The notes under the pieces were generated by a model. That model was given only the letters and a program-made list of their open reading frames with translations. It did no database searches and had not been told where the DNA came from. Below are positions 17,521 through 20,397 of a stretch of DNA of 64,000 nt, one piece after another (the stretch's first letter is position 1; the number at the start of each line of letters is the position of its first letter). The position numbers and the translations under genes are program-made. Source of the DNA: Candidatus Uhrbacteria bacterium (GTDB lineage Bacteria; Patescibacteriota; Patescibacteriia; UBA9934; GWF2-40-263); the NCBI GenBank assembly GCA_023246355.1, contig JAHFIQ010000002.1, forward strand, positions 24,333 to 88,332, given 5' to 3'.

Positions 17521-17952
17521 ATGTCTCACACGACCCATTCCGACGAAGAAACAAAAGCGCTTGCAGCCGAGTTTGCGAGAACGCTTCATGGCGGTGAGGT
17601 TGTTTTTTTGGAAGGGGATTTGGGATCTGGCAAAACAACGTTCGTCCGCGGCGTGGCAGAAGCATTGGGTTTCTCTGATCCTGTGCGCAGCCCCAGTTTT
17701 ACGATCGTGAATCGCTATGTCATTCAACATCCAACCATCAAACAGATGTTGCATGTTGATTTGTATCGACTCAAAGATGTCTCCGAGCTCTCAGCCTTGG
17801 CCCTGGAGGAAGAACTTGAGCGTCCTGGTACGGTTGCCTTCATCGAGTGGCCTTCTTTATTTCGAGATGTTTTTCCTACGCCGAGCGTTGTCCTGACTCT
17901 CACGGCTTTGCCAGCGGGAGAACATAAAATTGAGATTCAGGATTTGCGTTAA
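17521..17952 (+). CDS. tsaE: tRNA threonylcarbamoyladenosine biosynthesis ATPase TsaE (YjeE)
   Basis: GDLGSGKTTFVRG Walker A; about 144 aa; ATG 17521. Confidence 0.8.
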   Translation: MSHTTHSDEETKALAAEFARTLHGGEVVFLEGDLGSGKTTFVRGVAEALGFSDPVRSPSFTIVNRYVIQHPTIKQMLHVDLYRLKDVSELSALALEEELERPGTVAFIEWPSLFRDVFPTPSVVLTLTALPAGEHKIEIQDLR

Positions 17953-17982
17953 AAATAAAACCCCCAGGATGAATCTTGGGGG
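17951..17982 (-). terminator. Intrinsic terminator for a minus-strand transcript
   Basis: Minus strand reads cccccaagattcatcctggggg followed by ttttattttt. Confidence 0.55.
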
Positions 17983-17999
17983 CCGAAGGCTAGGGGCCT

Positions 18000-19539
18000 T
18001 GGTCGGGAGCGATTCGCACGATGCGTGCACCCTGTCGTCTCACGACGATTCGTTTGCACTGCTCGCGCGCTTTCCGAATCCGTTCAGCTTCCTCACGGAG
18101 AGCCTCGGGACTGGTTGTGTGCCATCCATCCGTGTGCGCCAGAGGTCCATGTGACTTGGTGGTGAACATCAGAGTCCTGGAGAGAGGGGGAATGACAGGA
18201 GCTGCAGGCCTGCCTTTGTCGTTCACAGACGGGAACGCCGATTGGGTACGACGTCCTGCTCGCTGTGGTTCAGGTGAAATGGTTCCTCTGACCTACACCA
18301 TGAACAGGCAGCCACGAGAGGGGGCACTGGGGCCCGCACCTCCAAGAGTGGGTTTATCCGTAAGCCGCTTCGTTTTGAACCTGCTGAATGGGTTGATCAG
18401 GCCAATTCGATCAGGCGAAGCGCGTCCTCTGGATCTTGATGCCTGGAACAAACAGCGACCCGAACAGGTACTCGCTGCTCGACCCAAGAACAGATGGACG
18501 ATTGCATCATCAAGCTGTTTTTGGGGAGGACGAGATGCTACGTATAGCACCTCGTCCTCAGGAAGGTGGTGAGAATAAACGACACATCCTCTCACCGTGC
18601 ATGGTCGCCCCTCATCAGGGCGGACGGAAGCGCTTGCGGCGCCGACCATGCTTTTAACCTCTCCGGTTGATGATGACCTCACGGCCACCACCCAGATGGA
18701 GTTCTGTCGCCGGGAGCTACCCCAACTTAGGACACGGGAACCTTCTCAGCTTCCACGCCTGGGTTGTACGGCCCAAACGTGTGGCTGGACGGACCGATAG
18801 GGGAGCTGCCTACCAATCCGTTTTTTTACTCCCTTACGGGAGGAGGCTCTTCAATCCCCGTGAACGCACGCGACGTATGCTCCAGCTTGCTTCCGAGCTG
18901 GGATCAGCAAGGTCGGTCTCGCATGCATGTGGGTGACTCACCCAAACCAACGCGTTGTTTTTGCAGCTTGGTGGCCGCTCAACAACTGACTTCGGGAAGG
19001 TACCAGCTCCCCGACGCGTCTTCCATCAGTCCCCCGCTGAAACAGGGGTGGAATCCACGTGGCGCTACAGATCTGTTGCCAGATCCCCCGAGTGCTGAAC
19101 TCGGAGTTTATACCCGTTACCGGGTTTATCTTCGTGCGTCGACCCAAGGGGCCGGCACACTGGTTGTGCCAAGCACCCAAGAGAAGACATTGCTGTTTCC
19201 TCCCTTCTGTTCACGAGTGTCTCGAGAAGAGAAGGGAAGACCGAACGGATGTTCGGCAGTGGTGTCCGGGTGGGGTCGGCGGAGTCTTATGCAAGAGCGG
19301 GTAGACAAGCCTTGAACACTGATGCTTGAGCGGTGAGCCGTGAGTTCTGAAGGCTATTAAACCCTGAACCCTAGCTTCGCTGTCGCTATCGTTGGCTTGA
19401 TCTTCATGGTTTGCACCATGTAGCGCTTCCCTTGGAAGGGCAGCGTTCCCGCTTGCCGTTTGTTCACCTTTAGAGCCGAAGCTCTTCGGGATCCCATTGG
19501 CTACTTGCAGTCTGAGTACCGCCTTCCCCAAAAGGTTGA
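18000..19539 (-). ncRNA. Candidate large structured non-coding RNA: ORF-free, hairpin-dense, G+C-rich 1.5 kb region (identity unknown)
   Basis: No ORF with credible composition on either strand. Many short perfect stems with tetraloops (e.g. gaggacgag...ctcgtcctc, ccgaagctcttcgg, ctccc-ttac-gggag, ggcacactggttgtgcc). Bounded by a 172-aa ORF and an intrinsic terminator. Confidence 0.25.
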
Positions 19540-20058
19540 CTAGGAGAGGTCGATCTCTACCAGGTTGCGGTGGTTGGCCTCCTCGAGGGTCTCATTGAGC
19601 GCCTCGCACTTTGTCCGCAACTCTGCGAGGAGCTTGACACGCTCAGGCTCGGTGTAGGCCGAAGACCACGTTTCGGTCGTGTGGACCGGACGACGGTGTT
19701 CATCCCACTCGCCAGTGGCGACACGCTGGGGTCCATGTTGGAGGGTGAGACTCGCGACGAAGGTGAGTTCGCCTTTGAGCTCGACCTGGCGACGGATGAG
19801 CTCGGCAAGCGTCACGTCGCGCCCTTGCCAGGTGGCGGTGCTCATGGCATTGCTGCGCGCGATGGCAGTCTCCAACATGACCAGGTTTTCGACTTTGGCC
19901 TTGCGAGCCTCGTCGACGGTGCTGAATTCGAAGTCTTTGCGCTTACCTTCCACCCAGGCCACACAAGCCGTGGCTCGGCGGGTGAGTTCGGCGATTTCGC
20001 CCTTGAGTGACTTGCGAATGCGAAGTGCCTTGGCAATCGAGATACGGGTGGTAGCCAT
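19540..20058 (-). CDS. Hypothetical coiled-coil protein (172 aa)
   Basis: ATG 20058 with GGAG RBS; G+C-rich; no family recognised. Confidence 0.5.
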   Translation of the reverse strand: MATTRISIAKALRIRKSLKGEIAELTRRATACVAWVEGKRKDFEFSTVDEARKAKVENLVMLETAIARSNAMSTATWQGRDVTLAELIRRQVELKGELTFVASLTLQHGPQRVATGEWDEHRRPVHTTETWSSAYTEPERVKLLAELRTKCEALNETLEEANHRNLVEIDLS

Positions 20059-20397
20059 TGGAAACTCCTGAGTCTAGGGGAAAGAGGAAAGGACCGCCCC
20101 AGAAATCTGGCCACAATGACACTGGGGGTTGTCATCGTGATCAGGTTTCTGGGCAACAAAAAACCTGGGCAGAAACAGAGATGTTTCATTGGCCCCAGGT
20201 CTTTTGTTGTTTGTCATCAGGTAATTCCTGTCAACCAGAGTCTGTTTCTTGTATCACGGTGACAAGATAACACAGCCTAAAAAGTCTGTCAAGTGGTCGG
20301 TGATCAAATTTAGATTTTAGAGCTTAACCTAGCAAAAGTTTATTTAAAAAAATGATCTCGATTTTGATTTTTTGTGAAGGTTGCGAAGGGATATCAT

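Follow-up and report, generated by a model that had tools for sequence, protein, structure and literature searches.

Two conserved structured RNAs outside Rfam follow a DIP1984/DUF6847-family gene in a Candidatus Uhrbacteria genome

We examined a 64,000-nt stretch of DNA from a Candidatus Uhrbacteria bacterium (hereafter the window, in whose positions coordinates are given), in which a unit read on the minus strand comprises, in order, a predicted promoter, a 200-nt leader, a gene for a protein of 172 amino acids, two RNA modules that we call D5 and B, a 356-nt spacer, an open reading frame (ORF) of 59 amino acids and a terminator. The unit is best explained as a minus-strand operon of a Candidatus Uhrbacteria-like (candidate phyla radiation) genome, and its parts are presumably transcribed together. 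An earlier reading of this locus from its letters (the sequence-only reading) had placed behind the 172-amino-acid ORF one large structured RNA of about 1.55 kb and of unknown class, ending at the terminator. The ORF is present at 19540-20058, and structured RNA does lie directly behind it in the same orientation, but as two modules, D5 (about 260 nt, 19268-19539) and B (about 715 nt, 18526-19239), and not as one molecule reaching the terminator. Most of 18526-19539 is conserved structured non-coding RNA without an Rfam match.

No long ORF was found in 18170-19539. When stops were counted by type in six frames, one minus-strand frame was poor in them (6 stops in 518 codons), and its translation was Arg/Ser/Gly/Pro-rich junk. 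The earlier statement that 18000-19539 holds no credible ORF was therefore correct for this part and wrong for 17990-18169, which is the conserved 59-amino-acid ORF; in homologous loci, no intact protein was seen in the conserved RNA blocks. We compared the sequence with Rfam 15, taking as membership a covariance-model score at the gathering threshold of the family. The whole window gave three distant transfer RNAs (tRNAs) and nothing else, 17700-20500 at an expectation value (E) of at most 10 gave chance-level matches of no more than 19 bits, none of them credible, and the related loci L009, L013, L021 and L023 gave no match at E ≤ 0.1. The unit therefore belongs to no Rfam 15 family, including OLE, GOLLD, ROOL, HEARO, raiA, RNase P RNA, transfer-messenger RNA (tmRNA), signal recognition particle (SRP) RNA, group I and II introns and Y RNA, and it is not ribosomal RNA; the sequence-only reading had likewise identified no signature of ribosomal RNA and no hallmark of the known large classes. 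In addition, blastn of the whole unit against phage and plasmid records found no match, and PADLOC returned only chance-level Cas2 matches. Searches of the literature on DUF6847, DIP1984, 3KDQ, large RNAs of Patescibacteria and phage RNase P RNA turned up neither an account of the RNAs nor one of the function of the protein.

The 172-amino-acid protein had been described as a coiled coil, which understates it, as profile and fold matches place it in the DIP1984/DUF6847 family. It matched the family models Pfam PF20935 (E 8e-4), NCBIfam NF038048 (E 3e-7) and phrog_1491 (E 2e-8), with scores under the curated cut-offs of Pfam (19.8 bits against 27) and NCBIfam (30.7 against 70). Sequence and profile searches returned 23 close homologues, several of which carry PF20935 and one of which comes from a Candidatus Uhrbacteria genome bin; the exact protein was found on 16 contigs of one organism, and a DIP1984/DUF6847 profile search gave 925 clusters at 50% identity. 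A sequence search of the PDB yielded nothing useful. For the AlphaFold2 model (predicted local distance difference test, pLDDT, 93.4), the best solved match in Foldseek was 3KDQ, an uncharacterised Corynebacterium diphtheriae protein (E 1e-4, probability 1.00, template-modelling score, TM, 0.75-0.83), with the next match at E 0.08, and the fold matches in the PDB included no nuclease, HutP, TRAP or ToxN-like fold. On this model, the protein is predicted to have the DIP1984/DUF6847 fold.

To describe the RNAs, we compared the window with six further lineages and with loci from genome and metagenome scans that used conserved RNA words. D5 is closed by a covarying helix in which 19529-19519 pairs with 19282-19272 (GGGGAAGGCGG / CCGCCGACCCC), carries a UUCG-capped hairpin at 19484-19473 and has a conserved core at 19391-19305. 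All 13 related loci with enough downstream sequence had D5 3' of the gene (nhmmer E 1e-43 to 1e-82), starting less than 20 nt past the stop codon in each, and every locus returned by a metagenome scan with a D5 pattern also carried the gene. D5 is thus an obligate 3' neighbour of the DIP1984-family gene in the related loci. Among 12 sequences, 86.9% of the cells of predicted pairs were paired, against 36-46% when the partners were slid, and 26 pairs had changed on both sides, against 8-16 in the slid controls. Of 500 shuffles, none reached the observed value on four of five measures, and 68 reached it on the fifth, the count of further pair types. The window copy (19262-19530) folded with a minimum free energy (MFE) z-score of -4.2, which none of 200 shuffles attained.

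The core of this closed multi-helix domain is an array of six U-N-A triplets at exact 7-nt spacing (19310-19351); the units GGUUCA and GGUUUA stand in front of it. In all 12 sequences, each triplet had an invariant U and an invariant A (core offsets 41/43, 48/50, 55/57, 62/64, 69/71 and 76/78), whereas the 4-nt spacers between triplets were variable. Autocorrelation at period 7 gave z = 3-6 in every lineage, the strongest period-7 signal of the whole unit.

B extends from a hairpin CUUCCCUUC...GAAGGGAGG (19239-19199) to a 15-bp hairpin (18559-18526), with its most conserved stretch at 18747-18726. We consider B to be a real RNA because its identity to L009 and L021 (73-75% over 680 nt) exceeds that of the protein gene (65% at the nucleotide level), because its variable columns fall evenly over the three phases (119/123/109) with no 3-nt periodicity, and because its covariation exceeds both slid and shuffled controls. 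In the consensus of seven sequences, 29 helices comprise 198 pairs; 95.7% of cells were paired, compared with 40-48% once the partners had been slid by 1-3 columns. Changes on both sides were seen in 53 pairs (9-14 after sliding), and none of 500 shuffles reached the observed values. Furthermore, the two strands differ: the alifold energy was -232 kcal/mol for the given strand and -175 for its complement, with 213 G-U cells against 18 A-C cells, and it is from these G-U pairs and this energy asymmetry that the strand of B was assigned. The window copy (18515-19245) had an MFE z-score of -8.1, reached by none of 20 shuffles. Inspection of B by eye revealed no convincing RNase P-like P4 element, group II domain V or GNRA tetraloop receptor, and a group II intron domain V reading of B was contradicted by the covariation. 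All seven hairpins that had been listed earlier exist: six are helices of the conserved structures, and the seventh, CCGAAC-AUCC-GUUCGG at 19241-19256 between D5 and B, occurs only in the window and its closest relatives L019 and L017. Taken together, these results demonstrate that D5 and B are real, conserved, strand-specific and non-coding.

D5 and B are separable. B was present in seven loci from two lineages and absent from L013 and L023 (nhmmer also failed to find it in L026 and L029). L009 has between D5 and B an 860-nt insert with a 221-amino-acid ORF, which L021 lacks and which has homologues in L013 and L023 (33% identity, E 1e-16); L028 has a 195-amino-acid cassette at the same place. 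These cassettes, together with the loci that lack B, show two separable modules, with B as an optional second one. What comes after B also differs: in the window it is the spacer and small ORF, in L009 a terminator with a convergent gene, and in L028 a 215-amino-acid ORF. By tblastn, the cassette proteins of the relatives had no match in the window.

The unit is richer in G+C (55-63%) than its flanks (40-52%), as had been noted, and this had been taken as a sign of horizontal acquisition. Our comparison does not support this: TrmB lies directly upstream in five of the six related lineages, in three of these with PilB and in two also with FtsH, and this conserved gene order argues for a stable part of the genomes and against recent horizontal transfer. 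The unit looks inherited within an Uhrbacteria-related clade in which only the cassettes vary.

Several of the related loci hold further ORF-free sequence. In two lineages, a conserved ORF-free stretch of 500-600 nt precedes the DIP1984-family gene, and it appears again 3' of D5 in L028 and L029 (L009 9494-10006, L021 2443-3029, L026 9434-9921, L028 4166-4768, L029 4134-4630); the window has no such stretch. In L023, D5 is followed by a different ORF-free, hairpin-rich stretch of about 1 kb (3710-4790), 94% identical to L025 over 264 nt, and then by a Ro60-like TROVE-vWA gene (4790-6316) and an HD-domain gene. This 1-kb stretch could correspond to a further large RNA or to a partner resembling Y RNA.

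Two hairpins recur at the junctions of these loci, before genes and before B. The first, GAGGACGCA...TGCGTCCTC, is 97% identical across lineages whose proteins are about 55% identical; the second is CCTCCCTYC...GRAGGGAGG, whose GGGAGG is used as a Shine-Dalgarno sequence by true ORFs of L009 and L013. A junction hairpin GAGGACGCAGTAGACGCATTCTGATGCGTCCTC was seen twice in L009 (9878-9921 and 11646-11690) and twice in L013 (1139-1186 and 2005-2052), with 97-100% identity within loci and between distant lineages; as it has two copies of GACGCA for a single TGCGTC, two alternative hairpins are possible. The junction hairpins may serve for processing or for recombination. We also noticed a short ORF (MSSLGCLAQ...) at the start of B (19065-19190), which has a well-placed GGGAGG and begins with one and the same AUG in each of the seven copies of B. 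From locus to locus it varies in length and frame, and one gene caller reported it in L028 as an 89-amino-acid protein.

To see how far the gene-RNA pairing extends, we looked beyond the clade. In L030, whose contig has 40% G+C and whose protein is 37% identical, a D5-core match (E 5e-8) starts 60 nt after the stop codon and is followed by a terminator; the heptads are of the UCAAGAA type, and nuclease-like genes adjoin the locus. DUF6847 genes with 34-45% identity to the window protein occur on four viral contigs. Directly behind each lies an ORF-free RNA of 300-350 nt, for which 63 pairs were predicted, with 92.9% of cells paired and compensatory changes in 11 pairs. This RNA has a long closing helix and an inner helix around N4-AGC heptads, in the layout of D5. 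Upstream there are tRNA genes; directly downstream comes a class A RNase P RNA gene (250-280 bits). Rfam recognised in these viral loci only tRNA, RNase P RNA and a weak tmRNA-like match, and left the RNA beside the DUF6847 gene unmatched. Neither a D5 pattern nor exact patterns from three invariant stretches of B matched in the viral contigs. From shared layout and position, the viral RNAs could be relatives of D5. The contigs are classed as viral in IMG/VR (L032 3923-4284, L033 3818-4147, L035 3976-4476, and L039); they encode a full-length class A RNase P RNA, tRNA arrays and the tmRNA-like match, with the DUF6847 gene and its RNA in between.

Pseudomonas phage vB_PsyM_KIL4 (L031, 2495-3574) has after its homologue a 460-nt gap with a weak heptad signal (z = 3.8) and with an annotated promoter and terminator; nhmmer did not find D5 there. 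The KIL4 homologue is annotated as a tail fiber protein, although it stands among early-type small genes near an RNA ligase gene, and the annotation is probably wrong. A tblastn search of plasmids with P0023 gave no match. The 'septicolysin' gene of OXA-24/40 plasmids, such as Acinetobacter baumannii pAB0057 (L036, 2499-2960), has the DIP1984 family protein annotation in 346 plasmid records. This homologue has been labelled 'septicolysin' or a pore-forming toxin (PMC3358182), a label that is an annotation without a test and that appears untested in the literature.

The remaining features of the unit lie at its two ends. Upstream, a promoter-like site TTGACA-17-TATCTT (20264-20292) agrees with the consensus in 10 of 12 positions, with a TG in front of its -10 hexamer, in line with the earlier proposal; the match is one of sequence only, and the block 20260-20294 is about 83% conserved with L023. 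The leader of about 200 nt (20059-20257) contains a terminator-like hairpin and U-run at 20199-20154 (CCTGGGGC...GCCCAGG TTTTTTGTTG), a stretch of 20-21 nt (20191-20211) that is identical in L023 and L025, and a part (20134-20203) that is 74% identical to L009. The hairpin could act as an attenuator, belong to a riboswitch-like element or form a short leader RNA.

Downstream of B, the spacer (18170-18525) is lineage-specific, with no counterpart in L017, L019 and L020; in L017, only about 56 nt separate the homology blocks that flank its position. It folds no better than shuffles (MFE z = -0.9), its sole similarity is a weak 100-nt match to L029, and it is probably filler or a decayed cassette. 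The 59-amino-acid ORF (17990-18169), with an Arg/Lys-rich C-terminal half, was seen only in lineage A. It is intact in the window, L017, L020 and L019, with 83%, 64% and 53% amino-acid identity to the latter three, and mismatches between the window and L020 fall mainly at third codon positions (14/6/28). The terminator (17951-17982), with its G+C-rich hairpin CCCCCAAG...CCUGGGGG and U-run UUUUAUUUUU, is where it had been reported; an automatic scan missed it on account of a loop longer than 8 nt. Its stem is kept in L017 by a compensatory change (CCCUCAAG/CUUGAGGG) and also covaries in L020. Since the 59-amino-acid ORF stands between the RNA and the terminator, the terminator ends the small ORF and not, as had been thought, the RNA.

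Outside the unit, tsaE and tsaD adjoin it. On the plus strand, a strong promoter-like site with TG (TTGACA-17-TATAGT, 11 of 12 matches, 20397-20425) points away from the operon and has a terminator downstream of it (20697-20728). The candidate RNA of about 297 nt between them has an MFE z-score of -4.25, no convincing ORF and no Rfam match; only a 37-nt block of it (20471-20507) is conserved, at 92-95% with L009 and L021. A plus-strand ORF of 243 amino acids at 15625-16356 (G+C 58-62%), directly upstream of tsaD and overlapping its start, has the Fic motif HPFADGTGR (Pfam Fic, E 4e-5) and is another gene of odd composition near the unit.

We tentatively explain the locus, at somewhat below even odds, as an operon of a DIP1984/DUF6847 gene and two conserved structured RNAs outside Rfam, and we suggest with low confidence that the protein binds the D5 repeat array. 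The protein, probably as an oligomer, would bind the periodic triplets of its own D5 RNA and form a ribonucleoprotein whose role would lie in RNA metabolism or phage-host conflict, and the junction hairpins that flank B may mark processing sites. A role in RNA metabolism is suggested by the neighbourhoods, namely the tRNA and RNase P RNA genes of the viral contigs, the Ro60-like gene of L023, the RNA ligase gene of KIL4 and tsaE/tsaD in the window. A bolder version is somewhat less probable: that the DIP1984/DUF6847 protein and its 3' periodic-triplet RNA are an unrecognised ribonucleoprotein system of candidate-phyla bacteria, other bacteria and phages, serving in RNA surveillance or in phage-host conflict over tRNA (for example as an anticodon-loop mimic or decoy), with B as an independent new class of large ornate RNA.

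Several observations weigh against the ribonucleoprotein explanation. The only fold match of the protein is 3KDQ, which has no function assigned; RNA binding is our conjecture, and the strand, ends and abundance of the RNAs are likewise deduced from sequence. Pairing with an upstream conserved strand is predicted for part of the heptad array, so the invariance of the triplets could have a structural cause and not reflect contacts with protein. The evidence for B comes from seven sequences in two lineages, and B has no one consistent neighbour gene. Finally, nhmmer finds no link between D5 and the viral RNAs, and the Acinetobacter plasmid member of the family has neither a D5 match by nhmmer nor heptads, which means that the pairing of gene and RNA is not family-wide.

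The alternative that fares best, while still unlikely, is that D5 and B are cis-acting parts of the messenger RNA with no protein partner, D5 being a stabiliser in the 3' untranslated region or a source of small RNA and B a long regulatory leader for the genes downstream. D5 is contiguous with the coding region, a terminator-like leader precedes the gene, and B starts with GGGAGG-N8-AUG, in a hairpin that also masks the Shine-Dalgarno sequence of the true ORFs in L009 and L013. However, what follows B varies between loci, the short ORF at its start is kept neither in frame nor in length, and 715 nt with 29 helices and invariant stretches of 20 nt far exceed known leaders. A stabilising role would also leave the six invariant triplets at 7-nt spacing unexplained.

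Somewhat less probable again is that the locus is an array of mobile cassettes, with the junction hairpins as recombination sites and the RNAs as cargo or as parts of the element. The insert of L009 that is missing from L021, the cassette of L028, the other genes in L013 and L023 and the long leader that is duplicated in L028 and L029 fit such an array, as does a junction hairpin that stays 97% identical where the proteins have fallen to about 55%. Yet no integrase or transposase was seen in the examined loci, the flanking gene order is kept, and the strand-specific covariation points to selection on RNA and not on DNA sites. Mobility would account for the variability of the locus but not for the role of D5 or B.

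We regard as doubtful the idea that D5 is an RNA antitoxin or decoy in the manner of a type III toxin-antitoxin system, its target being either a DIP1984-family protein that is toxic or nucleolytic, or a ribonuclease of the host or of a phage. The gene is tightly coupled to a repeat-bearing RNA, the pair occurs in phages in neighbourhoods of tRNA, RNase P and RNA ligase, L030 adjoins nuclease-like genes, and on our reading of the sequences the heptads fit the anticodon-loop pattern Y-U-N-N-N-R-N. Against this, the repeat unit has 7 nt instead of about 36 nt, the RNA follows the gene instead of preceding it, PADLOC matches are at chance level, the protein has no fold similarity to any nuclease, and the pore-forming toxin label of the Acinetobacter homologue is an untested annotation. 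Least of all do we credit a decayed pseudogene array or a gene in another genetic code, which the one stop-poor minus-strand frame and the real protein cassettes near the relatives' genes might suggest but which is refuted for D5 and B, and is possible for the spacer only, by the junk translation of that frame, by substitutions without 3-nt periodicity, by nucleotide conservation above that of the adjacent gene, by 53 compensatory pairs and by cassette proteins without a tblastn match in the window.

Whichever role they have, D5 and B stand outside all catalogued RNA families, and D5 seems regularly to accompany the DIP1984-family gene in bacteria and phages. DIP1984/DUF6847 is a large family with a solved structure and no assigned function, and the labels 'septicolysin' and 'tail fiber protein' that its members bear in public records are wrong; as a conserved partner, an RNA with a periodic array would be the first testable functional handle on part of the family. 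B is a large, heavily covarying RNA from candidate-phyla bacteria, whose non-coding RNAs are almost unexplored, and, like OLE, ROOL and GOLLD, it could be a target for structure determination. In viral contigs, the putatively related RNAs have tRNA arrays on one side and an RNase P RNA gene on the other, which hints at a role in the contest of phage and host over translation.

Compared with the rest of the DIP1984 family (PF20935, NF038048, 3KDQ and the Acinetobacter 'septicolysin'), the window protein shares the predicted fold, a similar length and a common N-terminal motif, but scores under both cut-offs, and its subfamily carries a 3' RNA where the Acinetobacter member has none. Type III toxin-antitoxin systems (ToxIN) likewise combine a protein gene and a repeat-containing RNA in one transcription unit; they differ from the present unit in the length of the repeat (about 36 nt against 7) and in the position of the RNA, which is downstream here, and the unit shows no ToxN-like fold and no PADLOC match. 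With Ro60 (Rsr) and Y RNA, the unit has in common a protein gene beside a structured RNA closed by a long terminal helix, and L023 even has a Ro60-like gene; however, Rfam gives no Y RNA match, Ro60 occurs in one lineage only, and the partner here is DUF6847. The binding sites of HutP and TRAP are spaced NAG triplets read by ring-shaped protein oligomers. D5 resembles them in its invariant triplets with short variable spacers, a triplet plus 4 nt being the spacing of HutP sites, but the triplet is U-N-A (AGC in phages), the predicted protein fold matches neither, the binding is conjectural, and the array is part of a closed structured RNA of 260 nt that follows the gene, not of a 5' terminator region. 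OLE, GOLLD, ROOL and HEARO differ from B in their partner protein and in that B gives no covariance-model match at E ≤ 10 and comes from a candidate phyla radiation host; B is like them in its length of about 700 nt, its many helices, its GNRA and UUCG loops, its long invariant stretches and its neighbouring protein gene. GOLLD and ROOL are often found among tRNA genes, and the putative phage relatives of D5 sit among tRNA genes as well.

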